Positions 1,583 to 20,108 of a stretch of DNA of 34,112 nt are shown one piece after another (the first letter of the stretch is position 1; each line of letters starts with the position of its first letter). Under the pieces are notes generated by a model. That model ran no database searches, was not told the DNA's origin, and was given only the letters and a program-made list of their open reading frames with translations. The DNA comes from Candidatus Sulfobium sp. (lineage in GTDB: Bacteria; Nitrospirota; Thermodesulfovibrionia; Thermodesulfovibrionales; UBA6898): assembly GCA_037380845.1 (NCBI GenBank), contig JARRRI010000041.1, positions 4,063 to 38,174 on the forward strand, read 5' to 3'. The position numbers and the translations under genes are program-made.

Positions 1583-2124
1583 TAAGCCCCTCCAGCCCCC
1601 TTTATTTTTACCGGAATTCCCGATACCGCCAGATAAACTTCGTGCGCAACTTCCGCCATCCTCTGGTTCAAAGACCCGGCTGCGTCCCTGTACCTCCTGG
1701 ACATCTCATCGGCAGGGACTATGCCCATGCCGACCTCATTGGAGACTATATAGATCCGCCCGGGACGATGAAGCGACGAGAGGGATTCAAGAAGGTTTTC
1801 TGTTTCCCTTTCGATGTCTGCGCCGCCCGAAATCAGGTTGTAAAGCCAAAGAGTGAGGCAGTCGAGAATTATTACCTCATAGCGATCTTCGATCTTCCTC
1901 AGCAGACTCCCGACCTTCAGCGGCTCCTCGTAAGTGTCGTATAGTTCGCCACGGTCCCGTCTGTGTCTTTCTATCCTGGATTTCATCTCATCGTCTGAAG
2001 GCCGGGCGGTGGCGACGAACGCCTTCCTGCCCGGAAAATCCGAAGCGGAGGCCAGAGCAAAACTGCTCTTGCCGCTTCTGGCCCCTCCCGTGACAAGGAT
2101 TATCCTCCTGCTCATCTTCTTCAT
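1582..2124 (-). CDS. cobU: Adenosylcobinamide kinase / cobinamide-phosphate guanylyltransferase
   Basis: [20 protein letters not shown] and [10 protein letters not shown] motifs. Start is 2124 or 2115; the ORF track uses 2151. Confidence 0.95.
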
Positions 2125-2134
2125 TTCTCCGGTC

Positions 2135-3857: not shown

Positions 3858-3858
3858 A

Positions 3859-4698
3859 CTATTGCCCCACCACCGCCCGCAGTTCTTCAATTCCCCGGAC
3901 GGTCCTAGGTCCAAGCCTGTAGAGGTCGTCGCTCACGTAAAACACCTCCCCGTTTTTCACTGCAGGCACTGTCTTAAGTCTGGCTAGAAGCCCTTCGGAC
4001 AACTTCCTGATGTCCGCGGGGTCATCATCTCTCATGTCAGGACCTATCACGATCATGTCAGGGGGGTCCCGAAGGATCGCCTCCAGCGAATATTTCGGGT
4101 ACTCGGATATCGACTTTGAGGCGGCGTTTTTTGCCCCTGCGATCTTTATCGCGTCGTCTATCACCGTGCCGGGCCCGGCTACGATCAAGGGATCAGGCCA
4201 GACGATGAAGAGCAGCTTTTTCCTCGGTCCTGAGGACTTCAATGCCTCAAGCCTTTCGAGCCTGGCTTCGTTATCTGCCGCTAGCCTGTCCGCCCTGTCT
4301 TTAACACCGAGGGCAGCCCCCAGTTCCCTTATTCCCCCGGCAAGGTCTTTTATCCTCCTGGCCGTGGAAACATAGGTCCTGATATGCAGGGAGCGGAGCC
4401 TCTCCTCAAACTCTTTGGAATTGCCGTCCGTTGTCATTACGACGACGTCAGGCTTCAGAGACACGACGGCCTCCAGGGACGGATTCGACATCCCCCCGAC
4501 CTTCGGTTTTGTCCTGGCCTCGGGAGGGTAGTCGCAGAAACTTGTTACCCCCACCAACCGGTCCCCCAAGCCCAGTGCGAAGAGTATCTCGGTCATGTTC
4601 GGCGCGAGTGAGATTATCCTCTCCGGCGTCCCGGCCCGGCAGGGGACGGGCAAAGAACAGAAAAGAATTACAAGCAGCATCAACGACCTTTTCAGCAT
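3859..4698 (-). CDS. btuF: Cobalamin-binding periplasmic protein
   Basis: Signal peptide followed by RIISLAPNMTEILFALG and VGVTSFCDYP. A GGAGG SD precedes ATG 4698. Confidence 0.88.
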   Translation of the reverse strand: MLKRSLMLLVILFCSLPVPCRAGTPERIISLAPNMTEILFALGLGDRLVGVTSFCDYPPEARTKPKVGGMSNPSLEAVVSLKPDVVVMTTDGNSKEFEERLRSLHIRTYVSTARRIKDLAGGIRELGAALGVKDRADRLAADNEARLERLEALKSSGPRKKLLFIVWPDPLIVAGPGTVIDDAIKIAGAKNAASKSISEYPKYSLEAILRDPPDMIVIGPDMRDDDPADIRKLSEGLLARLKTVPAVKNGEVFYVSDDLYRLGPRTVRGIEELRAVVGQ

Positions 4699-4708
4699 TC
4701 GCGCCTCC

Positions 4709-4753
4709 AAAAATAAAAAATCCTCAGAACCCGAATAAAGAGTCCTGAGGATT
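4709..4753 (-). terminator. Intrinsic terminator/attenuator of the riboswitch expression platform
   Basis: 12-bp stem AATCCTCAGGAC/GTTCTGAGGATT (one G-U pair) followed by TTTTATTTTT, immediately before the btuF SD. Confidence 0.8.
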
Positions 4754-4803
4754 GCACCCTGTTTTACTTCATCCTCACCTTTCTCCACGGAAAGGCCTTA
4801 AAA

Positions 4804-4857
4804 AGTGAGAAGTAAGAAGTCCAAAAACTACTTACTATTCACTCTTCACTTCTTACT
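4804..4857. repeat. Heptamer tandem repeats in inverted arrangement
   Basis: - strand reads AGTAAGA AGTGAAG AGTGAAT AGTAAGT AGT, then ACT TCTTACT TCTCACT. Confidence 0.7.
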
Positions 4858-4863
4858 GTCTTT

Positions 4864-5037
4864 ACAGGCAGGTCTTCTGGCTCTCCCGACCTTTGCCGGC
4901 CTTCCCATCCTGAAAATGAACAGTGGCCGATTGACGGCAAAGGCGCCTATTCCGCGGATGCGGAATCGGGATTACAGCGGCGGGACCGCTCCTGACTTTG
5001 ACAGGATTCCCTATTAAGCCTCTCGGCACCTATGAAA
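4864..5037 (-). ncRNA. Cobalamin (AdoCbl-type) riboswitch
   Basis: - strand reads AGGTGC..TTAATAGGGAA..GCGGTCCCGCCGCTGT..GCCACTG..GGGAAGG..GAGCCAGAAGACCTGCC (B12 box), upstream of btuF. Confidence 0.95.
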
Positions 5038-5066
5038 AGACTAATCTCAATTATCGGAAAAGTCAA
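5038..5066 (-). promoter_or_regulatory. Sigma70-type promoter of the riboswitch/btu-cob operon
   Basis: TTGACT-N17-TAGTCT directly 5' of the aptamer. Confidence 0.7.
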
Positions 5067-5073
5067 GCTCCCG

Positions 5074-5259
5074 TCAGATCTTCTGCAGTTCCGACCTCCT
5101 CACCTTAACCCGGTCACCGGACGACAGCGTTGCCCTGATCGTCGTGGCGGAGTGGTATTCCTTCTCCATGCATTCAAGCTCCATTCCATTTTCGAGTCTG
5201 GCGTCCTTGCCGGCGACAGTCTTGACGTCTTTCGTTTCGCCCAAATACTTAACTTTCAT
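5074..5259 (-). CDS. Small hypothetical protein (61 aa)
   Basis: GGAGG SD 8 nt before the ATG; last gene of the methyltransferase operon; beta-rich looking sequence. Confidence 0.75.
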   Translation of the reverse strand: MKVKYLGETKDVKTVAGKDARLENGMELECMEKEYHSATTIRATLSSGDRVKVRRSELQKI

Positions 5260-5289
5260 TTCAATGTCCTCCCTGACCGGGAGAGCCGC

Positions 5290-7269
5290 TTATGCAGCTC
5301 CCCGGCTCTCGGCAGTTAATAAGCTCTCTTCCTCATCAGGGGGCAGGATGCCCGCCAGATGGGGGAACTTGTCGAACATGTGAGGAAACTGCATCGCCTC
5401 GCCGAAGCGGTCGTTGAAGTCCTCCTCGAGAGCGAGCTCGACATATTCTACCCTGCGGGCGACATCGTTCGCCTCCCGTCTTTTGTCCACGTTAATCAAA
5501 GCGATCCTTGCGCCGTCACCTGCGGCGTTACCTATGGACTTGACCTTTTCGAGGTCGCAGTCGGGGTACATGCCGATCACCATCGCCGCGACCTTGTCTA
5601 TGTGGCTCCCGAAGGCGCCCGCCACCGCCAGCCTGTCGAAATTCGTGATGCCCAGTTTTCTCATCATGATGAGACATCCGGAGTAGAGAGCGCCTTTGGC
5701 AAGCTGTATGGCCCTGACATCTTTCTGATTGACGACAATGTCCTGATCTATCGAAGTTTCATGCTTCCACGCCAGCACGTATTCCGGAAGGTTCTTTGCG
5801 CCTCTTCTGAGCCGCTTTGACTTTAGGTCCATATTGATCTGGCCGTTCTTCCTGATGATGCCGGCCTTGAACATCTCGGCAATGGCGTCGATGATGGCCG
5901 AGCCGCAGATCCCCTTGGCCTGCATGTTGACCTTTCCGTCGCTCCAGCTGTCGTTTCCTATCACTTGATATGAAGCCTCGAGAGTCCCGGGGTCTATTTT
6001 GATACGCTCGATCGCGCCCGGAGCGGCTCTCATGCCGAACTCGATCTGCGCCCCTTCAAGCGCGGGACCGGTGGCACAGGAGCAGGATATGAGCTTTTCC
6101 CTGTTGCCCAGAACAAGTTCCCCGTTCGTCCCGATATCGATCAGGAGAGTAATCTCCTTCCGCTTATGCGGTGCATCGGCGATGAGGCACCCGACATTGT
6201 CGGCCCCTACAAAGCCTGCTTCAATGGGCAGGACGTGGATGTTGCCGGAAGGGAGAATCTTTATCCCGAACCGGTCCGCCTTTACGTCGACCGAACGGTG
6301 AAGGGCCGGCGTAAAAGGGGCCACTCCCATAAACTCGGGATTGATGCCCAGCAGTATGTGGTGCATGGCCGTATTTCCCACGAGGGTCATTTCACTTATG
6401 TCCCCGGGTGTATGGCCGGCCTTGTGCGCCGCGAGTCTTGCCAGGTTGTTAAGGCCTTCGATTATGGTAGCCTGAAGCTCTCGCAGGCCTTTTTCCTCAT
6501 CCATCATGCAATGAGTAATACGCGACATTACATCTTCGCCGTACTGCACCTGGGGATTCATCATGGACTCAGTGGCCAGGACTTCACCGGTATTGAGGTC
6601 CGTAAGATAACCGGCGCAAGTAGTAGTACCTATATCGACTGCAAGGCCGATATTTGTCTCCACGTTGCCCGGTTCGATACGGATTATCTCCTTTTTATGC
6701 CACAGCGTGACAGTCACCTTCCAGTCGCCCTTTCGGACAACATCAGGGAGTGTCTGAAGCACCCTGTAATCTATCGAGAGCCCCTTCAGTCCATGTTCTT
6801 TCAGGAGCGCCTCCGTGAGCCGCTCGAAGTCTCCCAGCGGATCGTCAAGGCTAGGCAGCGGCAGTTCCACATAATACTTCCCGACGGCGGGCTTCAGTTT
6901 CACCTTGATCTGTCCTGCCGCCTTGCTGACGACCTGTTTGCCGGTGCGGCTGGCCTCCGGAACAAACACGATGACGTCACCAAGTATCTTGGTCGCGCAG
7001 GCCAGGCGAACGTGTTTTTCCGACTCCTTTCGCTTCAGCACCTTCTTTTCCTTTTCGTCAAGGCCGCTCAGGTGTTTAAGGGAGGAGGTGATCCCTTCCT
7101 TCGGGAACTTTCCTTCCATTACGTTTACCTTGCATTTTCCGCAGACCATATGTTCGCCGCAGACAGCCTCAATACCTACTCCCAGGCGCCGGGCAGCATC
7201 GAGTATTGTTGTTCCCTCGGGCACCTGTCCGCGGCGACCCGAGGGTTGAAATATAATCGTATGATTCAT
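5290..7269 (-). CDS. Reductive activator of corrinoid proteins (RACo/AcsV/RamA-like; 2Fe-2S + ASKHA, DUF4445)
   Basis: N-terminal CGEHMVCGKC...RLAC ferredoxin; DIGTTT, NPQVQYGEDVMSRI, DIGTNGE, CATGPALEG, AGAFG and GNAAGDGA motifs. Confidence 0.93.
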   Translation of the reverse strand: MNHTIIFQPSGRRGQVPEGTTILDAARRLGVGIEAVCGEHMVCGKCKVNVMEGKFPKEGITSSLKHLSGLDEKEKKVLKRKESEKHVRLACATKILGDVIVFVPEASRTGKQVVSKAAGQIKVKLKPAVGKYYVELPLPSLDDPLGDFERLTEALLKEHGLKGLSIDYRVLQTLPDVVRKGDWKVTVTLWHKKEIIRIEPGNVETNIGLAVDIGTTTCAGYLTDLNTGEVLATESMMNPQVQYGEDVMSRITHCMMDEEKGLRELQATIIEGLNNLARLAAHKAGHTPGDISEMTLVGNTAMHHILLGINPEFMGVAPFTPALHRSVDVKADRFGIKILPSGNIHVLPIEAGFVGADNVGCLIADAPHKRKEITLLIDIGTNGELVLGNREKLISCSCATGPALEGAQIEFGMRAAPGAIERIKIDPGTLEASYQVIGNDSWSDGKVNMQAKGICGSAIIDAIAEMFKAGIIRKNGQINMDLKSKRLRRGAKNLPEYVLAWKHETSIDQDIVVNQKDVRAIQLAKGALYSGCLIMMRKLGITNFDRLAVAGAFGSHIDKVAAMVIGMYPDCDLEKVKSIGNAAGDGARIALINVDKRREANDVARRVEYVELALEEDFNDRFGEAMQFPHMFDKFPHLAGILPPDEEESLLTAESRGAA

Positions 7270-7292
7270 AAGTAATGCATAACCTCCTTCGC

Positions 7293-7369
7293 GGGGATGG
7301 CCGCCGTTTCCCAGGCCGTCGCAGCCGCCTCTGCAGACGACTGTCCCGAACCGGGAAAGCCGGCCGCCC
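7293..7369 (-). other. Long intergenic stem-loop between the corrinoid protein and RACo genes
   Basis: Outer stem GGCCG.GCTTTCCCGG pairs with CTGGGAAAC.GG.CGGCC; inner stem GTCGTC.GCAG pairs with CTGC.GACGGC. Confidence 0.6.
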
Positions 7370-7389
7370 TCGCTGTTTGACGGTGCAGG

Positions 7390-8061
7390 CTAGGCCGCCC
7401 TGCCTGACTTCAACGCCTCAAGCATCTTCATAGCCTCCCGGAGAGCGTTAGGCGCATTGTCAGCGGTTGTATCCGCACCGTATTCCTCGACTGTCTTTTC
7501 GCTGATCGGGGCTCCGCCTATCATGATCTTTACCTTCGGGTTCTTCTCCTTTATCATGGGGATGAGCTTCTTTATGCCCACCATGGAGGTCGTCATCATG
7601 GCCGAAAGCATCACGATGTCCGAGTCCGTCCTCAACTGCTCCTCGACGAACTTCTGGAGCGGCACGTCACGGCCCAGATCATGGACCGTCCAGCCCGATG
7701 CCTCGAAGATCGCCTTGATTATGTTCTTGCCGAGGTCATGAACGTCGCCCTGCATAACGCCCAGGACGACCTGGCCTTTCTTGCCCCCTTCTTTCACCTT
7801 TATGTGGGGCTTCAGTATATCCAGGGCCGCATAGAGCGCCTTGGCACACAGAAGGGTTTCCGGCACGAAGTACTCGTGGGTATCGAATTTCTCGCTCACA
7901 ACCTCCATACCTCCTGCCAGGCCTTCCATCGTCATCGTATAGGCATCGACGCCGGCGGCTACCGCCTCTTCGGCGATCTTCTTGGCATCGGCCGCCTTGT
8001 AGTTGATAACCGCGTCCTGCAACCTTTCTATCAGGTCTTTTTCTTTTTCAGTAAATGCCAT
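7390..8061 (-). CDS. Methyltransferase cognate corrinoid protein (MtaC/MtbC/MttC family)
   Basis: Four-helix cap (YFVPETL), GDVHDLGKN (DxHxxG), DLGRDVP, SAMMTTSM and IGGAP motifs. Confidence 0.95.
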   Translation of the reverse strand: MAFTEKEKDLIERLQDAVINYKAADAKKIAEEAVAAGVDAYTMTMEGLAGGMEVVSEKFDTHEYFVPETLLCAKALYAALDILKPHIKVKEGGKKGQVVLGVMQGDVHDLGKNIIKAIFEASGWTVHDLGRDVPLQKFVEEQLRTDSDIVMLSAMMTTSMVGIKKLIPMIKEKNPKVKIMIGGAPISEKTVEEYGADTTADNAPNALREAMKMLEALKSGRAA

Positions 8062-8082
8062 CGTCTAATCCTCCTTTGTTCT

Positions 8083-9147
8083 TTATTTATACACGCCGTA
8101 TTTCTTCGCAGCTTCGACGATTAATTTTGCCTTCATCAGGGGGCCGTTCGGCGGAAACTCACATCCTGTTGCCAGTACGAACCCTCCGCCCTTCGCGAAT
8201 ATCTCTATCTCAGCCTTGCATTCCTCCTCGATCTCCTCGGGGGTGCCGAGCATGGCAACGGGTCCCGGAGGTATCCACCCTATGGTCGCGATCTTGCCTC
8301 CCCACTTGGCCTTATGCTCTTCCCAGCTGTCCACATCGTCTGCAACGTAAGCGTGGGAAATGGCGTGCGGATTGGCCCATTTCTCGCACATGTCGAAATA
8401 GATGCCGTTTCCGCAGTTATGGAGACTTACCAGAGCACCCATGTCCCTGATGGTGTCACAGAGCCTCTTCAGTGACGGTCCCTCGAACTTCTCCCACAGC
8501 TCCTTGCCAAGGATGCTCTGGGAGCAATAGAGATTGTCGTAGCAGACCGAGTGCGCACCTGCCTCGACCTGGGCCTTAGCGTATTCAAGGAGCGTTTCGT
8601 CCATGGCCTGAAGCGCAGGGAGCACCGCATCCGGGTTTTCGATGAGATCCATGAAAAACTTCTCCGGACCGCGCATCATGCTCATCACACCCAGGGAGCC
8701 ATACACGAACCCAACTATCGCATGGGTCTTACCCACTACCTTAGCAATTCCGGCGGTCATATCGATGACGCTCTTCATCCTCTTGGTCTTCCTGGGGTCT
8801 ATCTTGGCGATCTTCTTGTAGTCATCGATGGTCTTTATGAAAGGGTTGTCGTAGTTCGGATGGGCGGTGTCCATCACGGGGAAGATCACCTCCTGTCCGA
8901 AATCAAAGGCCTCCACCGAGAGGTCCACCAGCGACACAACTCCGTCGTGGCCGATCATATCGAAGGCGTCGAGATGACCCTGCACCATCGCCTCCACATT
9001 GTCGCCGGTCGACCATTCGCCGTAGGTAATGCCGGAGAACCTGTGTGCCGCCCCGCAGACCAGCGGTGCTGCCGGTACCCGGTCAGGCTCGTTGTGAGTC
9101 AGGGTCGCTCCGACCCTTTCGAGACTCGTCATTTCATTCTTTGCCAT
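8083..9147 (-). CDS. MtaA/CmuA-family (URO-D fold) methyltransferase, intact
   Basis: ERV...PDRVP start, DLSVEA..FG, Zn ligands LHNCG and GCEFP, GTPEEI; next to the corrinoid protein; AGGAGG SD. Confidence 0.9.
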   Translation of the reverse strand: MAKNEMTSLERVGATLTHNEPDRVPAAPLVCGAAHRFSGITYGEWSTGDNVEAMVQGHLDAFDMIGHDGVVSLVDLSVEAFDFGQEVIFPVMDTAHPNYDNPFIKTIDDYKKIAKIDPRKTKRMKSVIDMTAGIAKVVGKTHAIVGFVYGSLGVMSMMRGPEKFFMDLIENPDAVLPALQAMDETLLEYAKAQVEAGAHSVCYDNLYCSQSILGKELWEKFEGPSLKRLCDTIRDMGALVSLHNCGNGIYFDMCEKWANPHAISHAYVADDVDSWEEHKAKWGGKIATIGWIPPGPVAMLGTPEEIEEECKAEIEIFAKGGGFVLATGCEFPPNGPLMKAKLIVEAAKKYGVYK

Positions 9148-9209
9148 TTTTACCTCCTCTTTTACTGCTGTTCATGTTGCGTTCCCATAATCGGAAACGT
9201 TGCCCACTG

Positions 9210-9878
9210 TCAATCAACCAGGATCAGACCGCTCCAGACTATCTCCGTCTTCGGCGGTATGTCGAAGGGGAGCCCTGCATTGATACTGGTCTTCACAACG
9301 TCGATCCCAACACCCTCCATGGACGGCCGCGCCTGGTACGGCCGGCGGCAGGCGTTGCCGGGGCCGGCGCACTTGTGGCAAAGCATGCAGTCTCCGCCTA
9401 TGAGCCCGAGGGCGTAAGGGAACCCGAGAGTGATCGCGCGCCCCTCGACTTCGTTCACCAGCTTGTGCAACTTCACCGACGAAAGCTTCATGTCGTCGAA
9501 GCTCTTCTGCCTGGCCCTCTTTTCTTCAGCACCTGTTCCCCCTTCCGTCCCCTTGCCTTCCAGGAACTCCAGCGCCTCGTTACGGTCGACATCCCCCATC
9601 GGCGCCGCCAGCGGGGTCCTCGTCTGAACGAGGACCGCCCTGCGGTACCTGCGGAGTGCCTTGCCGAATTCCTCGACGGTAGGGACGTTGGGGGGACAGG
9701 TGAGGCATTGGCCGAAATGGGGGCAGAGGGGGATCTGACACTTCATCCGCACACGTTCGTCAACTGCCACCAGGCGGGCCGAAAAAACCCTGGCCCCGCT
9801 GGCCCCTCTTTCCAGGGCGAACTCCTCCAGCTTTCTTAATTCGGCCGTTTTCGTCGTCGTCTTCTTCACTTGTTCCAT
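9210..9878 (-). CDS. DUF2284-like Cys-rich metal-binding protein
   Basis: VRMKCQIPLCPHFGQCLTCPP, GGDCMLCHKC...C and RPSMEGVGIDV motifs. Confidence 0.85.
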   Translation of the reverse strand: MEQVKKTTTKTAELRKLEEFALERGASGARVFSARLVAVDERVRMKCQIPLCPHFGQCLTCPPNVPTVEEFGKALRRYRRAVLVQTRTPLAAPMGDVDRNEALEFLEGKGTEGGTGAEEKRARQKSFDDMKLSSVKLHKLVNEVEGRAITLGFPYALGLIGGDCMLCHKCAGPGNACRRPYQARPSMEGVGIDVVKTSINAGLPFDIPPKTEIVWSGLILVD

Positions 9879-10090
9879 ACGTATGTTTTCGGGCGATATT
9901 CCTTAACATCTACCATGTCCTGGTTGAGTACGACCCGTTTCTTTTTCCAGCATTTGGGGCACATGTAGCGCGACCTGAAGCCCCTGTCGGGACCGGTATA
10001 TCTCAGTTCCATGTGCGACCTGCAGGCCTTTGTGCCGCATTCCGGACAGATGTAGTGGGCTTCTCCTTCACATTTGAAGCATTTTTCCAT
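9866..10090 (-). CDS. Small Cys/His zinc-finger-like protein (74 aa)
   Basis: CFKC, CPEC, CRSH and CPKC motifs; overlaps the DUF2284 start. Confidence 0.8.
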   Translation of the reverse strand: MEKCFKCEGEAHYICPECGTKACRSHMELRYTGPDRGFRSRYMCPKCWKKKRVVLNQDMVDVKEYRPKTYVWNK

Positions 10091-10109
10091 TCTTTTTCTC
10101 TCCTTTCTC

Positions 10110-12806
10110 CTAAGTAGTCAGTTTCTTGTAAATCAGGGGCAGCCTTGCAGGCAGCGTCTCGATATTGTCGATAAGCGTATAATTTGCCTCGCCGTACATA
10201 TAGGGAAGGTAGTCCCTGCTTTTCTTATCCACCGTGATACAGAAGGAATTTATTCCTTTTCTTCTGCCTTCCCAGAGAGCCCTTCGCGTGTCTTCGACAG
10301 CGTAATCCGCATCGCCGTAGTCGATGTCGTATGGTCTGCCGTCTGACATGAGGATGAGCAGCCTGATGCGGGAGGGCTGCCGAGCCAGCAGCCATCCGCT
10401 ATGGCGGATGGCCGCCCCGAGCCTCGTCTGGGCCATGGGTTTAATGTTACCGAACCGCATCTTCACCTGGTTTCCAAACCTCTCGCCGAAATCGCGCACC
10501 ACGAAGAAGTCGACCTTGTCGCGGTAGTGGGAGGAAAAGCCATAAACGGCCCAGTGGTCACCGATGCTCTCCAGCGCTTCGGCCATCAGGACGAGCCCCT
10601 CGCGCTCGACGTCGATGATCCGCTTGCCTGACGGCAGCTCATCGCCCGTGGAATAACTCATGTCCACCAGAAAAGCCACGGAAACGTCCCTGAGGTTCTT
10701 TTCGCGCCGGATATAAACTCTGTCGGAGGGCGTCCTGCCTGCGTGTCTGTCTACGACGGCTTCGATGGCGGCATCGAGGTCCAGGTCGTCGCCGCGCTCC
10801 TCTCGGAAATACCGCTTGACCCGGTCCGGCCTGAGCAGGCCGAAGTGCCGGCGTAGCAGGCTCACCAGCCCGTAATTATCAGAAATAGTCTCGTTGTAAA
10901 AGCGGGCGTTCGTCTCAACCATGTCCATTTCCCGGACGCGGCACCAGTCCTTCCTATAATCGTCAAGCTTCATGTCCCACTCGTCGTAGTAGACAGTCCG
11001 CCTAAGCCTCTTTTCGGACTCCATCTCCTCAACCACGGTGGAAACCTGTTCGGCGAGCTCATGCATCCGCTCGGCATCGGTAATCTGCCAGAATAGCTCC
11101 TCGGCTTCCACCGGCAGGCTCTCTTCGATTCGATCCAGCGCGGCCTCCACCTCCCCGGCCGATATCTCCGCCTTCTTGTCCCGGAACCTGTCCACGAGGT
11201 CCGTGACGAGCCGGGAGGTGCCTTCCCGTGTTTTATCCACCAGGTCATAGTCGATGATGCCGCGGTAGAAGGCCCTCTCCGGACCCTCTGCTGGCGGGCC
11301 GCATTCCGCATCACCGTCAAGGGAGTTGCAGATGCCCAGTGCAAGCTCATAAACCCGGGCAACGGTGCAGTCGGCAGTGCACACTTGTGCAAGGGCCTCA
11401 TTGAGCAGACCGCCGAGCTTCTGCCCCCCGTCGCTTCCCGCGGTCACGCCGCTGACGGTCCGGTAGCCCATGGCCTCGATGATCGACATTGGTGCCGGCT
11501 GAGACTGCCTCCGTCCGTTGACATATGCCGTCATGAGTTGGAGGCGGTCCCGCTCGAGACCGGGATACTGCAGGCCCATCAGGAAATCGATGCGCTCGTC
11601 CTCGAGAAACTCGAAGATCCTTGCGGCAAGCGGCGGGTTCGGGCAGTCGGCCAGCCCCGAGATCTCGGCCCGTCCGAGGTCGAAAGTGCCGTGCATCAGG
11701 TGGCCCAGCTCATGGGAGAGCATCAACTTGTACGCCTTGAAGTTCATGTCCTCCCCGGTGAAGACGTCCACCCGGGAGGGCAGGAAGATCCGCGAGCCGT
11801 CAGTCACGGAGAAGAGCCTGCTGAGACCCGGGAGGTTCTTGTAGAAGAGGGCTGAGGAGCGCAGCCTTAGCTTCCTTTGCGTGAGGGCCTCGGCGTAAGA
11901 TCTCAGCACGTACTGGATGTCCCTCAGTTCGAGCCCCTTGACAAGGTTCTCGACCGCATGCCTGCTCGAACCGGTCTGGAGGGAGAAGAAGGATTTACCT
12001 TTGTCCGTGGCGGCGTCCGCTGTCTCGAGCCCCTTGGCCACCCATTCCTCCAGGTCGTGTACGGTCAACCGGCCCAGGATCTGGGGCGCGGACTTGAAAT
12101 ACTGAACGGCCAGCTCGATCTTCTTCGACTTGCCCGCCCCCGAGCCCGCGGCCAAAAGGCTGTGGGCGTTATATTCCGCTTTCACCCGGGGGCTTTTCTC
12201 GATGAGATAAAGGCCCAGCCGGGCCCAGCGCTCAAGGTCGCAATGGTCGACCTTCTGGAGCACCTCGGGACTGGCCCTGAAATACTCCTTTGCCGCCTTC
12301 CACGAATGTCGCGCCATATCGCGGCCGAGAAATGCCCAGGTCTCGAAGCGTTCCGGACCGACCGACTTGAGCACCGTCACGCTGCCCTGGAAATACTGTA
12401 GGGCGACGTCAAGGTCAATCTCTGCCAGCGCGGCGCCATGGCCGATCCATCTCGAGACTGTATCGCCCGCCGCACCGGCCATGGACGGCAGGGCTTCGTA
12501 AGCCTCCTCCACAACGCTCCACTTGGAGCGGCCCATATCGAGCAATGCAATGAGGACTTCGGCCCTCACATGCGCGTCGGCCAGAGCCGACAAAGTGGCG
12601 GCGCCGCTGCCGAGGATGCGGAGGGCCAGAGGCCGGCTGAGCGGCGCCAGTGTATCCACAAGTTGGAAGAAGACAGTCCTGCCTGTCTCATCGAGGACCC
12701 CGCTGAGATTCGTTTCTGCGTCGCCGATCATGTCCTGGGCCCCGAGTTTTTCGGCCAGGGCCTTCAGCGGAACCGGGCCATCATTTTTCACGTAAGAGGT
12801 GTTCAT
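10110..12806 (-). CDS. CbbO/NorD-family VWA-domain adaptor protein
   Basis: YDEWD...Y...[34 protein letters not shown] and SDGRPYD motifs; ATGA overlap with the AAA+ gene. Confidence 0.9.
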
Positions 12807-13633
12807 ACGACCGCCGAGACTATCTCTTCCAGAGTTTTCTGTATCTCGATGTCATCCGTGATCGGCTTGATCATGGCCACCGTGCATGCCCTGCGCGGAT
12901 TAATGCCACGTTTTATGAGGACACCGGCATAGATGAGCAGCCTCGTGCTTACCCCTTCGTCGAGACCCCGGTCCTTCAGCCCCCGTATCTTCTCCGCGAT
13001 CTTTCTGAGGTCGGCCGCGGTCTTCTGGTCGACACCGCTTTCATGCACTACGATCTCCTCTTCAAGCCCTGCGGGCGGATAGTCGAATTCGATGGTGACG
13101 AACCGCTGCTTCGTGCTCTGTTTCAGGTCCTTCAGCACCGTCTGGTAGCCGGGGTTGTAAGAGACGGCCAGCATGAAGGTGTCGGCAGCCTCCAGGACCT
13201 GGCCGCGCTTCTCAAGGGGCAACATCCTTCGGTCGTCGGTAAGGGGGTGGATCACGACTGTGGTGTCCTTGCGGGCCTCCACGACCTCATCCAGGTAGCA
13301 GACGCCGCCGTGGCGGACGGCGAGGGACAGGGGGCCGTCCTGCCAGCGGGTGGAACTGCCGTCAAGGAGGTAACGCCCCACCAGGTCGCTTGCCGTAAGG
13401 TCCTCGTGGCAGGCGATCGTGATCAGCGGCAGGTTCATCTTGTAGGCCATGAACCCGAGGAAGCGCGTCTTGCCGCACCCGGTGGGACCCTTCAGCATAA
13501 GGGGCAGCTTGTCTTCGTAAGCGATTTTGAAAAGTTCCACCTCGTCCTGTATGGGCAGGTAAAACGGCTCGCTCGCGATCCTGTAGTCCTCCATATTTTT
13601 TTCAACTGTCTCTTTGTGAATTGTCTCTTGCAT
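12803..13633 (-). CDS. CbbQ/NirQ/NorQ-family MoxR AAA+ ATPase
   Basis: [50 protein letters not shown] and GVSTRLL motifs. Confidence 0.95.
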
Positions 13634-13638
13634 ATTCG

Positions 13639-14076
13639 TTACCTCTCGGTTTTATTGCTGCGGCTATGATTTTCCGGTTCCATGGACAGCCCATGCTCTT
13701 GAAATACCTGCTTAAGGGCATCTTCCGTAACGCGCGCGACAGCTTCACGGGAAAGACCGTAGATTACCGAATTTATCACCAACCGGAAGGTCGTGGCCGG
13801 TTCTCCGTCTTTCCCTTCCACGGTCAGGTCTGCGGGGTCGCCCAGCGTATCTGCCGCAAGAAAACCTGTCGCGTGTTCCACGTACGCCTTGATGTGCCCT
13901 ATATCCTTTGCCCCCTTCGCTACACATCCCGACGCTACGGCCGTCATGAGCGAGGCAGCGAAGCTCCTCAACTCCTCCGGTGGGACCGGCGTGCTGCGAG
14001 TTGCGAGGCAGGCGACTCCGTAGCCGTGTATCTCCCCGTGGGCCGGGTTTTCTTCAATGCGAATAAAATCGGTCAT
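13639..14076 (-). CDS. Hypothetical protein with IGHIK motif, probable partner of the G3E GTPase
   Basis: 145-aa ORF with ATGA overlap on the GTPase stop; stop codon 5 nt before the CbbQ start. Confidence 0.75.
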
Positions 14077-14690
14077 GCCGCAACGACCCTTTCCCTTACG
14101 GCCCCCGCGAGTTCGGTCAGTCCTTTGCCGGTGTGCGTCGAGAGTTCCAGGACAGCTGCCGCCGGATTGATTTTGATAGCTTCATCACGGGCTTTTCCGA
14201 GTGTCTCGGGCGGTACCCTGTCGGCCTTGCTGAGGGCGATTATGTCCGCGTCCCTCAGCTGTGTACCGACCAGCCTTTTCAAGGTATCGTAGGTGAGAAG
14301 CTTTTCGGCCCGCGTGGTGTCGAAGAGGACGATAGTGGGGCCGATTACGATATTATTTCTGGCCGCCCCGGTCAAAACATTTTCTCTGATAGTGTTCGGC
14401 ACTGCCATGCCCGTGGGCTCGACGAAGATGAGATCGGGCTTAGGCCCTTTTGCCAGGGACTCGAGGGTCCTGAGCATGTTCCCCGCAACCTGGCAGCATA
14501 TGCAACCTCCCCCAATGTCCTTCACCGTGAGGCCGAATTCCTTCATCACCCTGCCGTCGACCGGGACTTCGCCTGCGTCGTTTACGATTACGGCCGTCTT
14601 CAGCCCCGGTTCAGCCATCATTTTGGCAAGTGCTATGATCAGGGTGGTCTTCCCTGAGCCGAGGTATCCTGCGACCTGGATCAGTTTCAT
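14073..14690 (-). CDS. CobW/HypB/UreG (COG0523, G3E) GTPase, nucleotide-binding domain only
   Basis: Own ATG at 14690 (MKLIQVAGYLGSGKTT); GGCICC, EPTG and SKAD motifs. Also reachable as an in-frame fusion from 15536. Confidence 0.88.
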   Translation of the reverse strand: MKLIQVAGYLGSGKTTLIIALAKMMAEPGLKTAVIVNDAGEVPVDGRVMKEFGLTVKDIGGGCICCQVAGNMLRTLESLAKGPKPDLIFVEPTGMAVPNTIRENVLTGAARNNIVIGPTIVLFDTTRAEKLLTYDTLKRLVGTQLRDADIIALSKADRVPPETLGKARDEAIKINPAAAVLELSTHTGKGLTELAGAVRERVVAA

Positions 14691-14695
14691 ATCTT

Positions 14696-15536
14696 TCACG
14701 CCGCCTTCAGAGTCGACACGAGTTCTTCCATGTTCTTCCTGGGAACTTCGGGCCACAGATCGCAGCCGGGCCATTGCGCCGCACTCAGCCATGTCCTTGA
14801 TGATGGCATTCGTGTCTCCGCAGATATGCAGTATGTTCGGCCTGGGTATCTCCGACAGGATCTTGACGAGGTGAGGTTTTATGAGGGACCTGAAACTCTT
14901 GGGACTCATGACGTCAGAAGTCCCCCCCATCTCCCTGAGAGTGAAATAATCCGCACCGGCGTCGCGATATATTCCGAAAAGCCTTATGATGAATTCCGAG
15001 AGCTTTGCGAGGAGCTTGCCGGTCTTTTCGGGCTCCAGGAAGGACTCTTCGAAGAGGGCATCTAATTCTTTTACCTGTCCGGCGAGAGTGAAAGGCCCCA
15101 GGGCATAGGTTCCGATAGCCACCTCGTCACCCAGCTCCCGCCTGAGAGCCTTAATCGCACCCGTGACAACCGGTATCCTCCCCGCGTTTTCCATGTCTTC
15201 GGGGATCCTGACATCCTCAACTTCCACCACCGATTTTTCCTTTATCGTCGGGTAGAGAAGACCTTCTACCTCGTCATAAAAATTCATCTTCGCCCCGAGT
15301 GCCTCCGCTTCGACCCCGAGGTCAAAAGGTACCACCGCGCATTCATAGCCGAATTCTTTGTACATTCCTGCTGCTGCCCTGGCCATCAATTCCGGATCCC
15401 GGTGCACCTTGGAAAAAACGATGCCGTAATCATCGAGAACGGGTTTTATTACATTGCCCATCCCGCTGAAGACCGGTGGACGGTCCACCTTCTCACCGTT
15501 GAGGAATTTGAGGACTCTTTCTCTTGCTGAAAGCAT
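14696..15536 (-). pseudogene. Second MtaA/CmuA-family methyltransferase with internal deletion and frameshift
   Basis: 254 aa ending LHICGD...ECGA. The true C-terminus WPGCDLWPEVPRKNMEELVSTLKAA* is in another frame (14773-14696). Confidence 0.85.
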
Positions 15537-16323: not shown

Positions 16324-16971
16324 CTACAGGGAGGTGAGCCCCTCCCGGACGGCATATTTGGTAAGTTCCGCCAGGCGGTGGATACCCAGTTTGTTCATGA
16401 TGTTGGTACGGTGGGTCTCCACCGTCTTGATGCTCACATTGAGTTCTTCGGCGATCTCCTTGGCGGTCCTTCCTTCAGCGAGGAGCTGGAGGACCTCCCG
16501 CTCCCTGTCTGAAAGAAGGGTATAGGCAGAAGACTCGGGCTTCGGCGTATGCCTGACATAACTTTCAACCACGATGCCCGAAATATCGGGACTCAGGTAG
16601 ATCTTGTCCGCCAACACGGTCCTGATGACTGATTCGAGCTCATCGAAGACATAGTCCTTCGAAAGATAAGCGGAAGCCCCGGCCTTGAGCATTTCAGCGA
16701 CGAAACGCCGGTCTGAATGCATTGACAGCGCGATGATCTTGATGTCCGGATGATCGGCTATGATCTGCCTGGCCGCCTCGATGCCGTTCAGATCCGGCAT
16801 CGCCACGTCCAGAATGACTATGTCCGGTTTGAGGTCCCCTACCATCCGGACCGTGGACCTTCCGTCCTCGGCTTCCCCGACGACCTTAATGGCGGGGTGT
16901 TTTTCGAGGAGCGTACGAAGGCCGTCGCGGATGAATTTGTGGTCGTCGGCAAGGAATACGTTGATGCTCAT
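16324..16971 (-). CDS. NarL/LuxR-family response regulator
   Basis: LADDH, ILDVAMPDLNG receiver; LSDREREVLQLLAEG...SIKTVETHR HTH. Confidence 0.96.
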   Translation of the reverse strand: MSINVFLADDHKFIRDGLRTLLEKHPAIKVVGEAEDGRSTVRMVGDLKPDIVILDVAMPDLNGIEAARQIIADHPDIKIIALSMHSDRRFVAEMLKAGASAYLSKDYVFDELESVIRTVLADKIYLSPDISGIVVESYVRHTPKPESSAYTLLSDREREVLQLLAEGRTAKEIAEELNVSIKTVETHRTNIMNKLGIHRLAELTKYAVREGLTSL

Positions 16972-19526: not shown

Positions 19527-20108
19527 ATGGCAGGTCTTTCGGGAGTCATCATCAGTTGCGGCATATTCAGACAGGAAATCGAATCCCTGGCAAGGGAAAG
19601 AGGTTTTTCAAAAGATGTGGTCTTTCTCGACGCGTCCCTCCATGTAAATTTCGACAAACTGAAAGCCCGGCTGACCGGTGCGCTGGAAAAATACGGGAAA
19701 GGGAGCAGGAAAGTGAAGGTCCTTTACGGACACTGTCATCCGGAGATGACTGAAATTATTGCTCGTTACGGCGCAAAGAGGATAGGAGCGGGCAATTGTC
19801 TGGAGGCGATTGCTGGCGCCGAAGAGATCGCAAGGATCGATAGAGAGGCAAAGACTTTCTTTCTGACATCAGGATGGGTAAACAATTGGGAGGCGATGTT
19901 CAGGCTCGGGGAGGAGGATTTCAATTTCGACTTCAGGAAGATGTTTTCGTCCTATAAACGCATAATTGTTTTTGACATCCGTGGAATTCCTGTCGATGAG
20001 GAAAAAGTGAGAAAACTGAGTGATTATGCGAAATTGCCGGTGGAAAGACGGTCAATGACCCTGGATCATTTTCGGAAGGTCATAAGTGCCCTCAATGACA
20101 AAGATTAA
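19527..20108 (+). CDS. DUF1638-like protein
   Basis: IISCGIFRQEI, LH....L, LYGHCHP, NCLE and FFLTSGW pattern; divergent from the kinase. Confidence 0.8.
   Translation: MAGLSGVIISCGIFRQEIESLARERGFSKDVVFLDASLHVNFDKLKARLTGALEKYGKGSRKVKVLYGHCHPEMTEIIARYGAKRIGAGNCLEAIAGAEEIARIDREAKTFFLTSGWVNNWEAMFRLGEEDFNFDFRKMFSSYKRIIVFDIRGIPVDEEKVRKLSDYAKLPVERRSMTLDHFRKVISALNDKD

Follow-up and report, generated by a model that had tools for sequence, protein, structure and literature searches.

The eleven genes at positions 5074 to 15536 of the window (the whole 34,112-nucleotide stretch that was analyzed) pointed to an undescribed ATP-driven machine that would assemble or repair one of the operon's zinc methyltransferases. 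The genes are best explained as a single unit, inherited together and built of two layers. The first layer is best explained as a corrinoid-dependent methyl-transfer core of the thiol or selenol type, made up of two MtaA-like enzymes (best read as TIM barrels whose zinc is bound by His-Cys-Cys), a corrinoid carrier of the His-on type, and RACo. The second is best explained as a maturation or repair module. It comprises a COG0523 GTPase with its 145-aa partner, an AAA+ hexamer of the NorQ type with a NorD-like adaptor (NorDL), a zinc finger with eight ligands, and the Cys-rich DUF2284 protein. The earlier note had suggested a new client for the AAA+/VWA pair, either the methyltransferase or the corrinoid protein; this idea was supported, and none of the computable results that bear on it refuted it. 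The balance tilts slightly toward NorQ and NorDL being an assembly or metal-loading machine that acts on the second MtaA-like enzyme, MtaA2. This reading is built on the gene identities, their strict co-inheritance, the separate clade of the ATPases, the distinctive domain layout of NorDL, and a co-fold that passed its controls. A literature search found no paper on a NorQ/NorD-type pair within a B12 methyltransferase operon.

All of the operon genes were on the minus strand, and open reading frame (ORF) and profile checks bore out every coding region that the earlier note had named, within the coordinates that it had given. The order was MtaA-like protein, short COG0523 GTPase, 145-aa protein, NorQ-type AAA+ ATPase, 898-aa NorD-like VWA protein, zinc finger, DUF2284 protein, MtaA-like protein, corrinoid protein, RACo, and 61-aa protein. 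The overlaps between neighbors that had been noticed were located in three gene pairs (at 14073-14076, 12803-12806, and 9866-9878), and the remaining intergenic gaps were 5 to 120 bases. In the Pfam scan of window ORFs, no gene for Rubisco, NO reductase, or nitrite reductase turned up, in line with the earlier note. The cluster also lacked a pterin methyltransferase.

The count of eleven genes was correct for the organism and incorrect for the database record, which showed 10 ORFs because 170 bases were missing at 14774|14775. In the record, the first MtaA-like gene (MtaA1) and the GTPase formed a single 487-aa ORF (14073-15536, URO-D plus cobW), in which about 30 out-of-frame residues separated the end of the URO-D match from the GTPase. 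The 5' part of MtaA1 (14775..15536, minus strand; residues 1-254, HICG at residue 237) matched Pfam URO-D over profile positions 3-261 of 346 (E 4.5e-48) and NCBIfam PRK06252 (179.5 bits), and the remainder of the gene lay out of frame at 14691-14774. The 170-base deficit was apparent relative to three orthologous loci (L010, L006, and L012), and 170 extra letters were present at exactly this junction in Logan contigs of all four public runs checked, which came from three studies and included one run that was possibly the source of the record. The deficit is thus a gap in the assembly. MtaA1 orthologs were about 336 aa and had a PGCD motif at the end. The GTPase (14073..14690, minus strand; 205 aa) was a COG0523/CobW-type G3E GTPase that carried the metal motif GGGCICC (CxCC) but lacked a CobW_C domain; it matched Pfam cobW (E 1.2e-34) and the CobW-related model NF041053 (121.5 bits, under the 180 cut-off of that model), and it was an ORF of its own, of 201-206 aa, in 29 orthologous loci.

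The 145-aa protein (p145; 13639..14076, minus strand), whose gene shares 4 bases with that of the GTPase at its stop, carried IGHIK and a gH.Ka motif and had orthologs in 29 loci (32-72% identity); it had no match in Pfam or NCBIfam, and the Atlas gave unnamed clusters only. The 74-aa Cys/His finger (9866..10090, minus strand) matched zf-HIT at E 3.9e-4, which is below the cut-off. It followed NorDL in 34 of 34 loci, and the columns of its eight ligands (C4, C7, C15, C18, C23, H26, C44, and C47) were invariant in 23 sequences. The 222-aa DUF2284 protein (9210..9878, minus strand; Pfam E 6.6e-41), a predicted Cys-rich metal-binding protein, had the conserved motifs KCqiPlCPH..CPP and GG.CmlC..C...C. 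The 223-aa corrinoid protein (7390..8061, minus strand) combined a B12-binding cap with a Rossmann domain and had a GDVHDLGKN (DxHxxG) motif (Pfam B12-binding plus B12-binding_2; TIGR02370, 186 bits). RACo, the ATP-dependent reductive activator of corrinoid proteins (5290..7269, minus strand; 659 aa), had all four domains, i.e., 2Fe-2S, linker, middle, and ASKHA (Pfam Fer2, RACo_linker, Raco_middle, and RACo_C_ter), and matched the AcsV model at E 7e-147. The last gene, p61 (5074..5259, minus strand; 61 aa), had a CmEKEyHS motif and no family match in Pfam or NCBIfam.

The operon is directly preceded by genes for a LuxR-type response regulator (16324-16971, minus strand) and a PAS histidine kinase paired with it (16968-19409, minus strand), both identified via Pfam. 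This pair was upstream in 16 of the 30 loci that reach upstream (manual count), all of the Nitrospirota type, and it probably regulates the operon. Divergent from the kinase is a gene for a DUF1638 protein (19527..20108, plus strand; Pfam E 3.4e-32), orthologs of which (51-78% identity) neighbored the cluster in 14 of the 34 loci. According to the portion of Price et al. (bioRxiv 10.1101/192971) that was available, the DUF1638 family co-occurs with RamA/RACo-type activators.

The linkage of the operon genes is not a matter of chance. Gene content and order were identical in 34 of 34 loci wherever the contig extended, with p61 as the sole exception (found at 22 of 24 loci extending past RACo). 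The loci came from metagenome-assembled genomes (MAGs) labelled Nitrospirota, Nitrospinota, Desulfobacter/Desulfatibia (Desulfobacterota), and, in one case, "Rokubacteria". Full-length orthologs of NorDL and of MtaA2 (at least 69% identity) occurred in one identical set of 7 genomes among the 301 sampled from the host phylum, and the next MtaA2 matches in this sample were at most 32% identical. For MtaA2 relatives of about 40% identity, a COG0523 GTPase was in the same locus in 25 of 38 metagenome loci of at least 12 kb and, among the matches listed, was directly downstream of the methyltransferase; NorQ or NorDL was in none of the 38. These counts suggested that the GTPase goes with the MtaA2-type methyltransferase, that the motor is a later addition, and, as a point against the proposed machine, that the core can work without it.

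The NorQ/CbbQ-type MoxR AAA+ ATPase (12803..13633, minus strand; 276 aa) matched Pfam AAA_5 plus CbbQ_C and had Walker A (GPTGCGKT) and Walker B motifs at residues 49 and 113, respectively. In a tree, the 30 cluster ATPases were monophyletic (support 100/99, stem 0.46) and lay outside the few reference pairs that were included (four NOR linked, one Rubisco linked, and eight orphan). Thus, the clustering with Rubisco- or NOR-linked clades that the earlier note had named as a refutation was not observed. The second QD pairs found in cluster genomes resembled the cluster pair at no more than 56-61% identity for Q and 41-44% for VWA, and their VWA proteins did not have residues 1-240 of NorDL.

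NorDL (10110..12806, minus strand; 898 aa) is a NorD/CbbO-like adaptor with more than 115 full-length homologs and no Pfam match at E 0.01. Its last 300 residues correspond to the NorD VWA domain (PDB 9qhd_G, E 6.4e-53). At the N-terminus, a clade-specific domain of helical repeats (the N-domain, about residues 10-300; 11907-12806) is followed by an HExxH zincin-like module (about residues 300-450; HELGH at 11700-11714), by a helical region and linker in the models, and by the VWA domain with its MIDAS (about residues 690-898; DMSYS at 10650-10664). The MIDAS residues D715, S717, S719, T794, and D822 were invariant in 21 sequences.

MtaA2 (8083..9147, minus strand; 354 aa) matched URO-D over its full length (E 2.5e-51). 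The top PDB match was MtaA 4ay7 (E 1.3e-11), with HxC and C aligned, so that H243-x-C245 and C329 are the putative zinc ligands. Zinc sites of MtaA-type barrels are generally surface accessible, and it was not obvious why MtaA2 would need an ATP motor. When NorDL residues 1-330 were co-folded with MtaA2, the corrinoid protein, and the zinc finger, the score was 0.68 (runs of 0.65, 0.70, and 0.68), the runs shared at least 51% of contacts, and the partner pLDDT was at least 70. The best of three controls scored 0.00. Of 157 solved complexes, 116 reached the mark for this score, versus 2 of 215 mismatched pairs, in a calibration that, unlike our job, did not use custom alignments and four chains. 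The score expresses the confidence of a model rather than a measured interaction. The single job did not extend to MtaA1, the GTPase, p145, DUF2284, RACo, or the VWA/MIDAS domain, and there may be other or additional clients. The predicted interface consisted of NorDL residues 55-56, 92-97, 132-133, and 213-226 and MtaA2 residues 246-248, 266-275, 291-297, 309-316, and 348-354, which adjoin the ligands H243 and C245. On this model, the NorDL N-domain is predicted to dock on MtaA2. Residues conserved at 90% or more made up 25 of 31 interface positions in MtaA2 (157 of 323 elsewhere) and 9 of 21 in NorDL (68 of 309 elsewhere); the enrichment in MtaA2 was weak support because an active-site face is conserved anyway. 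MtaA2 segments 264-276 and 289-298 were invariant within the clade and differed in relatives of 36-53% identity, which are without QD.

The same docking site suits a CbbQO-like activase, which would open MtaA2 or an MtaA2-carrier complex and free an inhibitor or dead-end product, such as sulfide or selenide on the zinc, with no metal insertion. The predicted site is the active-site face of MtaA2, the ATPase was nearest to solved CbbQ proteins (5c3c, E 5.7e-114, 383 bits; 6l1q, E 4.8e-106, 357 bits), whereas NorQ was slightly further (335 and 333 bits; 9qh4, E 3.6e-99), and the core system occurs elsewhere without QD, like Rubisco without activase. Substrate inhibition of the related Mlp2 by selenide is described in the available text of Kountz and Balskus. 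However, these enzymes have no known inhibitor in this lineage, the metallochaperone-type GTPase, zinc finger, and Cys-rich metal-binding protein suit metal handling better, and the HExxH metal-binding motif of NorDL is intact. We regard an activase as unlikely.

Alternatively, the motor could open the apo-carrier for cobamide insertion or exchange in the base-off/His-on form. No protein of the set was more conserved than the corrinoid protein (78-91% identity across 22 orthologs), and G3E GTPases such as MeaB aid B12 loading in other systems. Directly after the operon, a cobalamin riboswitch (4850..5048, minus strand; Rfam RF00174, 91.9 bits, E 9e-22) heads a separate B12 uptake and salvage unit with btuF/C/D-like genes (2135-4788, minus strand) and cobU, cobT, and cobS (3-2151, minus strand), assigned via Pfam. 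In addition, CobST, also an AAA+/VWA pair, works with CobW to drive cobalt chelatase, as far as the accessible part of a preprint (10.64898/2026.10.09.757910) describes it. Yet the B12 genes followed the cluster in only two further loci (L016 and L034) of the 34, relatives without QD also hold corrinoid proteins, and replacing MtaA2 alone reduced the co-fold score to 0.00. The carrier contributed no residue to the confident interface of the co-fold; this point is weak, since an unnamed residue is one that the tool treats as uncertain. A carrier client thus seemed decidedly improbable.

The HExxH module raised the idea that NorDL is an active metallopeptidase in protease-coupled quality control, which would cleave a pro-peptide after metal insertion or cleave damaged enzyme. 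H365, E366, H369, and E402, D403, E404, and R405 (HExxH plus EDER) were invariant in 21 sequences. The top structural matches of residues 300-450 were all zinc peptidases, namely BepA (6sar, Z 5.8, 111 aligned, rmsd 3.3), ZMPSTE24 (6bh8, Z 5.6), abylysin (4jiu, Z 5.3), BlaR1 (8exp, Z 5.0), jannalysin (4jix, Z 5.0), and selecase (4qhf, Z 4.4), and a weak profile match was to selecase MJ1213 (E 0.3). The module may be called zincin-like from the motif and these Z scores (4.4-5.8), which are below the trustworthy level of the tool, and Foldseek returned nothing at E 0.001 or better. Moreover, NorDL paralogs have HAWAQ in place of HExxH, which suggested that the fold has a noncatalytic role in the family, and an unsystematic look at the neighboring proteins revealed no cleavable extension. 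Peptidase activity therefore seemed very doubtful.

The earlier note had also asked whether the client gene lies elsewhere in the genome. In the organism's own genome, a true cNOR is encoded elsewhere (norCB, G000:C3:19013-21028; NorB versus 3o0r_B, E 1.3e-123), which speaks against a new client, and the operon ATPase is the sole CbbQ_C match; because there is a cNOR and no other NorQ, NorQ and NorDL may have a side job for it. A cNOR-type NorB was found in 16 of 34 cluster genomes, of which 5 (G004, G012, G015, G027, and G034) had a second CbbQ_C gene, 10 had the cluster copy only, and G002, where the cluster contig is cut, had none. The remaining counts left the new-client idea unrefuted. 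A NorB match was missing in 16 of 34 cluster genomes and a Rubisco-large match in 29 of 34 (Rubisco-type matches in only 5), the NorB figure being one for MAGs of unstated completeness, and 64 of 81 NorB-positive genomes in the phylum sample had no NorD-like match. That the pair is simply the NorQD of this cNOR, placed among methyltransferase genes by accident, is extremely improbable given these counts, the absence of NorB and NorC matches within 10 kb at all 34 loci, the 7-of-7 co-occurrence of NorDL with MtaA2, the separate ATPase clade, and the existence of cNORs lacking NorQD (Appelgren and Adelroth 2025, PMC12067857, in the text available).

For the assembly or metal-loading machine, we infer the binding and the direction in which it acts, as well as metal and substrate. 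The proposed mechanism runs as follows. The clade-specific N-domain of NorDL would dock on the active-site face of MtaA2, as the co-fold predicts, and the VWA finger and C-terminus would, by analogy, plug into the NorQ ring. ATP hydrolysis would then twist or stretch the NorDL linker and open MtaA2 for loading of its metal site. The metal would most simply be zinc passed on by the GTPase, and the intact HExxH...E site of NorDL may serve as a metal way-station. The proposed insertion of NorDL into the ring is like that of NorD, and NorQD, in the available text of Kahle et al. 2026 (PMC13036017), inserts FeB through linker twisting.

The operon was located at positions 5074 to 15536 of the window, on the minus strand, and consisted of densely packed ORFs with three overlapping gene pairs. 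In the record, its upstream end was a single ORF (14073 to 15536) in which a URO-D/MtaA-like domain, representing the first MtaA-like methyltransferase (MtaA1), was followed by a cobW-type GTPase. Next came p145 (13639 to 14076), a 145-aa protein without a family; NorQ (12803 to 13633), a CbbQ/NorQ-type AAA+ ATPase; and NorDL (10110 to 12806), an 898-aa NorD/CbbO-like VWA adaptor. The remaining genes encoded a 74-aa Cys/His finger (9866 to 10090), a DUF2284 protein (9210 to 9878), the second and full-length MtaA-like enzyme, MtaA2 (8083 to 9147), a corrinoid protein (7390 to 8061), the corrinoid activator RACo (5290 to 7269), and p61 (5074 to 5259), a 61-aa ORF. RACo contained 2Fe-2S, linker, middle, and ASKHA domains (Pfam E values of 1.7e-10 to 4.3e-98). 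Pfam and NCBIfam produced zero matches for NorDL, p145, and p61, and Atlas look-ups of p145 and the Zn finger returned unnamed clusters only.

The joined MtaA1-GTPase ORF was 487 aa in length, and its URO-D domain stopped at profile position 261 of 346, with the continuation absent from the other frames. Relative to three orthologous loci, 170 bases were missing from the record between positions 14774 and 14775. The contigs of all four public runs (4/4, from three studies; one run was possibly the source) carried 170 extra letters at exactly this junction, which indicated that the organism has eleven genes and that the 487-aa ORF is chimeric. The alternative that the ORF is a genuine fusion or deletion was rejected because the public contigs carry the missing 170 bases. 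Relatives carried separate genes for MtaA1 (about 336 aa) and for the GTPase (201 to 206 aa). Hence, the eleven-gene operon described in the earlier note was borne out once the gap was restored from the public contigs, although the record itself shows MtaA1 and the GTPase joined.

Upstream of the operon were genes for a LuxR-type response regulator and a PAS histidine kinase, followed by a divergent DUF1638 gene (19527 to 20108, plus strand), whose orthologs adjoined the cluster in 14 of 34 loci. Price et al. (bioRxiv 10.1101/192971) describe DUF1638 as codistributed with RamA-like activators and as required for a split methionine synthase. On the other side, a cobalamin riboswitch (RF00174, 91.9 bits; 4850 to 5048, minus strand) was found between the p61 gene and a btuF-like gene, and btuFCD-like and cobU/T/S genes were located downstream of it. 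The position of the riboswitch indicated that the B12 uptake and cobU/T/S genes form a separately regulated unit adjoining the operon. Elsewhere in the window, a tRNA gene (33483 to 33555, minus strand; Rfam, 69.5 bits) overlapped a 107-aa ORF, which is therefore probably not a gene.

NorDL had more than 115 full-length homologs (about 880 to 913 aa; 51 to 78% identity), and a locus scan using one genome per species yielded 34 loci. These were in MAGs labelled Nitrospirota/Thermodesulfovibrionales, Nitrospinota, Desulfobacter/Desulfatibia/Desulfobacteraceae, and, in one case, "Rokubacteria." When the window proteins were compared to all ORFs of the 34 loci via BLAST, the eleven-gene order was identical at every locus, and each operon gene was found wherever the contig extended far enough. 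Among loci reaching the relevant position, the four genes upstream of NorDL were present in 30/30, the Zn finger in 34/34, and p61 in 22/24; these counts carry no statistic because related genomes are not independent. Thus, the linkage of the chaperone pair to MtaA, the corrinoid protein, and RACo, for which the earlier note had proposed a neighbourhood survey, recurred in 34/34 loci. The lack of NO reductase linkage noted for the window also held, as NorB and NorC had zero matches at all 34 loci. In a 301-genome sample of the phylum Nitrospirota, full-length NorDL was found in seven genomes, including that of Candidatus Sulfobium sp. (one copy was cut by a contig end). MtaA2 orthologs (at least 69% identity) were present in exactly those seven genomes, and the next MtaA2 matches in the sample had at most 32% identity. 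The cluster was patchily distributed, with occurrences in 2/6 of its own family and in several phyla, which fits transfer as a unit.

The NorQ ATPase contained Pfam domains AAA_5 (E 7.9e-31) and CbbQ_C (E 2.6e-32), a Walker A motif (GPTGCGKT) at residue 49, and a Walker B motif (YLDE) at residue 113. Its matches to solved structures included CbbQ (PDB 5c3c, E 5.7e-114) and NorQ (9qh4, E 3.6e-99), and it weakly matched CobS (PDB 9ujv, E 1.3e-4; TIGR01650, E 4.8e-5). The gene for its VWA-MIDAS partner was directly adjacent: the NorDL start codon was located 4 bases before the ATPase stop codon, and the same was true of 30/30 loci reaching upstream. We built a tree of 43 ATPases, namely, 30 from the cluster, six second copies from cluster genomes, four NOR-linked and one Rubisco-linked plasmid references, and two from orphan plasmid pairs. 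One reference is labelled S. meliloti, and plasmid annotations of "cytochrome c plus cbb3-type subunit I" were read by us as norCB. The 30 cluster ATPases were monophyletic (support 100/99, stem 0.46) and fell outside all 13 others, including the Rubisco-linked reference (Cereibacter, L051). The phylogeny that the earlier note had suggested thus placed the cluster apart from NOR- and Rubisco-linked ATPases, in a tree with few references.

Several other pairs of this type (QD pairs) were seen during the survey. Six cluster genomes had a second, orphan pair in which the Q protein was 56 to 61% identical and the D protein was 749 to 812 aa in length and only 41 to 44% identical to NorDL in the VWA part. 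The neighbours of these orphan pairs (L040-L046; genomes G004, G012, G015, G027, G031, and G034) included DsrC-like, SelA, and ThiF/JAB genes; they were not informative, and no obvious client was found nearby in the six genomes. The closest plasmid ATPase (64% identity) was that of Miltoncostaea oceani (L050). The genes after it specify a hypothetical protein (362 aa) and, separately, a VWA protein (548 aa), an arrangement that looks like a split adaptor. On plasmid pB of Ancylobacter polymorphus (L049), an orphan pair, made up of a CbbQ-type ATPase and a VWA protein of 764 aa, was encoded back to back with ureD, ureG, and ureC, which may be a coincidence or may reflect another client. In addition, all sampled genomes of two families of the phylum, f25 (50/50) and f28 (24/24), encoded a VWA protein whose open frame was about 1000 to 1100 aa long. 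It was 43 to 51% identical to the VWA part of NorDL and, in some genomes, weakly similar (26 to 28%) in the N-part; it is another large QD-type adaptor.

The final 300 residues of NorDL corresponded to a NorD-type VWA domain, which aligned to NorD (9qhd_G, E 6.4e-53) through the finger region, MIDAS, and C-terminus, ending at residue 896 of 898 in NorDL and residue 643 of 646 in 9qhd_G. The MIDAS residues D715, S717, S719, T794, and D822 (DxSxS...T...D) were invariant in 21 sequences, and a VIA comparison of NorDL with 9qh8_G yielded a Z score of 10.8. In the full-length NorDL model, the VWA part was poorly modelled (pLDDT <50), and the only matches of this model in Foldseek and VIA searches were to the VWA domain and to designed helical repeats. 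A NorDL profile aligned weakly (E ~1e-13) to the N-domain of the orphan D proteins from profile position 239 onward, indicating that residues 1 to 240 of NorDL are clade specific.

Between these two regions was an HExxH module. The motif HELxH...EDER (H365, E366, H369, and E402-R405) was invariant in the 21 NorDL sequences, and the paralogs had HAWAQ...EAVR at the same positions. In the NorDL model, HExxH and the downstream Glu were on helices 352 to 371 and 391 to 413. When a model of residues 300 to 600 (pLDDT 86) was analyzed via VIA, M48/minigluzincin zinc peptidases were the best matches for residues 300 to 450. Ten zinc peptidases covered this segment at Z scores of 4.2 to 5.8, which are too low to stand alone; they included BepA (6sar; Z 5.8, rmsd 3.3, 111 aligned residues), ZMPSTE24 (5.6), abylysin (5.3), and selecase (4.4). 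The profile match between NorDL and selecase was weak (E 0.3), and a Foldseek search with the 300 to 600 model found nothing at E 0.001 or better. Residues 221 to 227 of NorDL (GSGAGKS; window positions 12126 to 12146) fit the P-loop pattern [AG]-x4-G-K-[ST]. This segment was rejected as a nucleotide site because conservation in the family consensus does not extend to the Ser/Thr position; the same loop is a predicted contact of MtaA2.

With regard to the methyltransferases, the best PDB match of MtaA2 was MtaA (4ay7, E 1.3e-11), and its zinc ligands H243, C245, and C329 aligned to those of 4ay7. The MtaA1 orthologs carried HICG...PGCD, and both MtaA1 and MtaA2 were below the NCBIfam equivalog cut-offs. 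The GTPase (Pfam cobW, E 1.2e-34) had a CxCC motif in the form GGGCICC that was conserved in 30 sequences. At 205 aa, it was without a C-terminal CobW_C domain, and a p145 profile had zero matches among the long CobW-like proteins of related loci; hence, there was no sign that p145 is a split-off CobW C-terminal domain.

A search of 1.84 billion representatives identified graded relatives of MtaA2 in other phyla, including those of Phosphitispora fastidiosa, Desulfosudis oleivorans, and Actinomycetota and Eubacteriales MAGs. Around one such relative (40% identical, 553 cluster members), we examined 38 metagenome loci of at least 12 kb. A COG0523 GTPase was present in 25 of these loci, immediately after the methyltransferase gene in those whose gene order was listed, and a corrinoid protein, RACo, and DUF2284 were present in 12, 11, and 8, respectively. 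NorQ, NorDL, p145, and the Zn finger were found in 0/38. These counts indicated that the GTPase (and DUF2284) goes widely with this methyltransferase type, and that the NorQ-NorDL-finger-p145 block is an addition of the lineage studied here. Across metagenome loci L055-L134, many of which are labelled gut or fermenter, the next gene after the roughly 40% identical MtaA2 relatives encoded a COG0523 GTPase of full length. RACo, DUF2284, and a corrinoid protein often accompanied it, and NorQ and NorDL never did.

To identify a candidate client, residues 1 to 330 of NorDL were co-folded as the partner with MtaA2, the corrinoid protein, and the Zn finger; the four chains were supplied as 23-row alignments from the same loci. 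The co-fold score was 0.68 (0.65, 0.70, and 0.68 in individual runs), and the best of three controls scored 0.00, as did the control in which MtaA2 alone was replaced. In calibration, 116 of 157 solved complexes scored at or above the mark, as against 2 of 215 mismatched pairs; these counts hold only approximately for our own alignments and four chains. The runs shared at least 51% of contacts, and the pLDDT of the partner was at least 70. PDB sequence searches found no solved chain matching the NorDL N-domain, so it is unlikely that the co-fold passed because the model had already learned a solved complex.

On the NorDL side, the confidently predicted interface comprised residues 55 to 56, 92 to 97 (with invariant W96 and S97), 132 to 133, and a Gly-rich loop at 213 to 226, in which G221, A224, G225, and K226 were invariant. 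On the MtaA2 side, the predicted contacts were residues 246 to 248, immediately after zinc ligands H243 and C245, together with 266 to 275, 291 to 297, 309 to 316, and the C-terminal tail (348 to 354). Conserved residues made up 25/31 of the MtaA2 interface compared to 157/323 elsewhere, and 9/21 of the NorDL interface compared to 68/309 elsewhere. The active-site face of MtaA2 is conserved in any case, which limits the weight of the MtaA2 figure. Segments 264 to 276 and 289 to 298 of MtaA2 were invariant in the clade and differed in 36 to 53% identical relatives. In 10 of 11 aligned relatives of this kind, a Cys was at or beside the position of V272, usually as a "DDC" motif, whereas the clade had "DDV." The co-fold model supports binding of the NorDL N-domain to MtaA2. 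The proposal that the chaperone pair has a new client, with the Zn methyltransferase as a candidate, thereby gained support from the predicted complex (0.68 versus 0.00 for the control).

Our best reading is that the operon encodes a thiol/selenol-type corrinoid methyl-transfer system with a dedicated maturation/repair machine. The motor would dock on MtaA2, and its most likely job would be ATP-driven opening of MtaA2 so that metal from the GTPase could be loaded, by analogy with FeB insertion by NorQD and with CobW/CobST. FeB is the non-haem iron of cNOR, the cytochrome c-dependent NO reductase; its insertion by NorQD, and a proposed twisting-insertion model, are described by Kahle et al. (2026, PMC13036017). 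A more elaborate version is possible, but we regard it as rather doubtful: a previously undescribed metallocentre assembly line for a soluble methyltransferase, comprising a G3E GTPase, a Zn-finger helper, a Cys-rich carrier protein, and a NorQ/NorD-type motor. The adaptor of the motor would keep the metal at its intact HExxH site, and the active-site metal of the MtaA-type enzyme would be loaded as ATP hydrolysis opens the barrel. Judging from the His-Cys-Cys sites and from the similarity to type 1 mlp clusters, the substrates may be methylated sulfur or selenium compounds; SelA is encoded in the genome.

Instead of loading metal, the machine may remove an inhibitor in the manner of an activase, it may load the carrier with cobamide, or its HExxH module may carry out a proteolytic step. 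A different kind of explanation is that the pair serves a client encoded elsewhere, and the pair may have a side role for the organism's own cNOR. The genome, which is 100% complete by markers, has one CbbQ_C gene, that of this operon, and encodes a true cNOR on another contig (G000:C3:19013-21028; NorB versus 3o0r_B, E 1.3e-123), preceded by a 224-aa NorC-like protein with two CxxCH motifs (two haems). No NorQ or NorD was found beside this cNOR. Against such a role, a NorB-type match was present in 18 of the 34 cluster genomes (16 cNOR-like and 2 qNOR-like) and absent from 16 (MAG completeness not given). Furthermore, 64 of the 81 genomes with a cNOR-type NorB in the 301-genome sample were without a NorD-like match at E 1e-20 or better, which indicates that most cNOR-encoding genomes of this phylum do without such a pair. 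Appelgren and Adelroth (2025, PMC12067857) likewise report that some cNORs do not need NorQD. A cNOR side role cannot explain the operon linkage. Therefore, the possibility raised in the earlier note, a client gene elsewhere, stood insofar as a cNOR is present on another contig, but not in view of the 16/34 genomes without NorB, the 64/81 NorB genomes without a NorD-like match, and the separate ATPase clade. With regard to Rubisco, there were 0 Rubisco-large (PF00016) matches in the Candidatus Sulfobium genome, weak family matches in 5/34 cluster genomes and none in 29/34, and neither NorB nor Rubisco-large matches in 14/34.

MoxR-type AAA+/VWA pairs are widespread, and the clients that are understood are few: Rubisco, cNOR, and chelatases. 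If the assembly-line reading is correct, this pair would be the first MoxR/VWA insertase whose client is cytoplasmic and neither respiratory nor Rubisco, and the metal of the MtaA2 subtype would possibly be something other than simply spontaneously bound zinc; the "DDC" Cys of most QD-free relatives is Val here. MtaA2 is a genetically clean, soluble, expressible candidate client with a concrete predicted interface, and its solubility means that the NorQD twisting-insertion model could be tested without a membrane protein. The operon also bears on the maturation of corrinoid-dependent methyltransferases in anaerobes and on the role of the poorly understood MtaA-like (mlp-type) systems in sulfur/selenium methyl cycling by marsh and sediment bacteria. 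The link between the COG0523 GTPase and the methyltransferase extends to gut and fermenter metagenomes, which suggests that assisted metal loading is needed more widely than has been recognised.

The operon resembled four known systems in part. As in NorQ-NorD, an AAA_5 plus CbbQ_C ATPase was encoded next to a protein with an alignable VWA part, with a 4-base overlap between the two genes. Unlike NorQ-NorD, norCB was not nearby in 34/34 loci, the ATPases formed their own clade, and the neighbours were corrinoid methyltransferase genes. NorDL also exceeded the solved NorD chains (646 and 638 aa) by about 260 residues; it had an additional helical domain at the N-terminus, and its HExxH was intact. 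As in CbbQ-CbbO, the partner was a large VWA protein with a MIDAS, the best sequence match of the ATPase was solved CbbQ (5c3c), and the NorDL N-domain was distantly homologous to that of 750- to 810-aa CbbO-sized paralogs (E 1e-13). In contrast, HExxH was intact in NorDL and degenerate in those paralogs, and there was no Rubisco linkage. CobW works with the aerobic cobaltochelatase CobNST, of which CobS/CobT is the motor, and the operon shared with these proteins a COG0523 GTPase with CxCC, a MoxR-related AAA+ protein, a VWA protein, and a corrinoid setting. However, the ATPase was of the CbbQ/NorQ type rather than CobS, the GTPase was a short 205-aa form, Pfam revealed no CobN-like subunit among the cluster proteins, and the predicted partner is a methyltransferase rather than a tetrapyrrole chelatase.

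The gene content was similar to that described for type 1 mlp clusters by Kountz and Balskus (bioRxiv 10.1101/2023.07.31.551370), which have several SCMT-like URO-D enzymes with His-Cys-Cys, a corrinoid protein, and RACo/RACE, lack a folate methyltransferase, and have a proposed methyl-sulfur/methyl-selenium role. The operon had at least two SCMT-like candidate Mlps, a corrinoid protein, and RACE, and no pterin-binding/folate methyltransferase was found among all ORFs (Pfam and NCBIfam). Synteny was strict in this cluster, whereas the mlp clusters are reported to lack conserved synteny. The main text of that preprint, whose supplements may list such genes, does not contain NorQ, CbbQ, von Willebrand, AAA, CobW, DUF2284, chaperone, ATPase, Nitrospir, or Nitrospin, and the main text of the paper on the SAO system (Haft and Gwadz, bioRxiv 10.1101/2022.07.06.499078) does not contain CobW, DUF2284, MtaA, corrinoid, NorQ, or CbbQ. 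Our literature searches, judged by titles and the beginnings of abstracts, found no paper describing NorQ/NorD or CbbQ paired with a corrinoid methyltransferase. Thus, the chaperone type itself is known, and what would be new here, given the predicted complex, is the client of a NorQD/CbbQO-type chaperone, along with the architecture of its adaptor.
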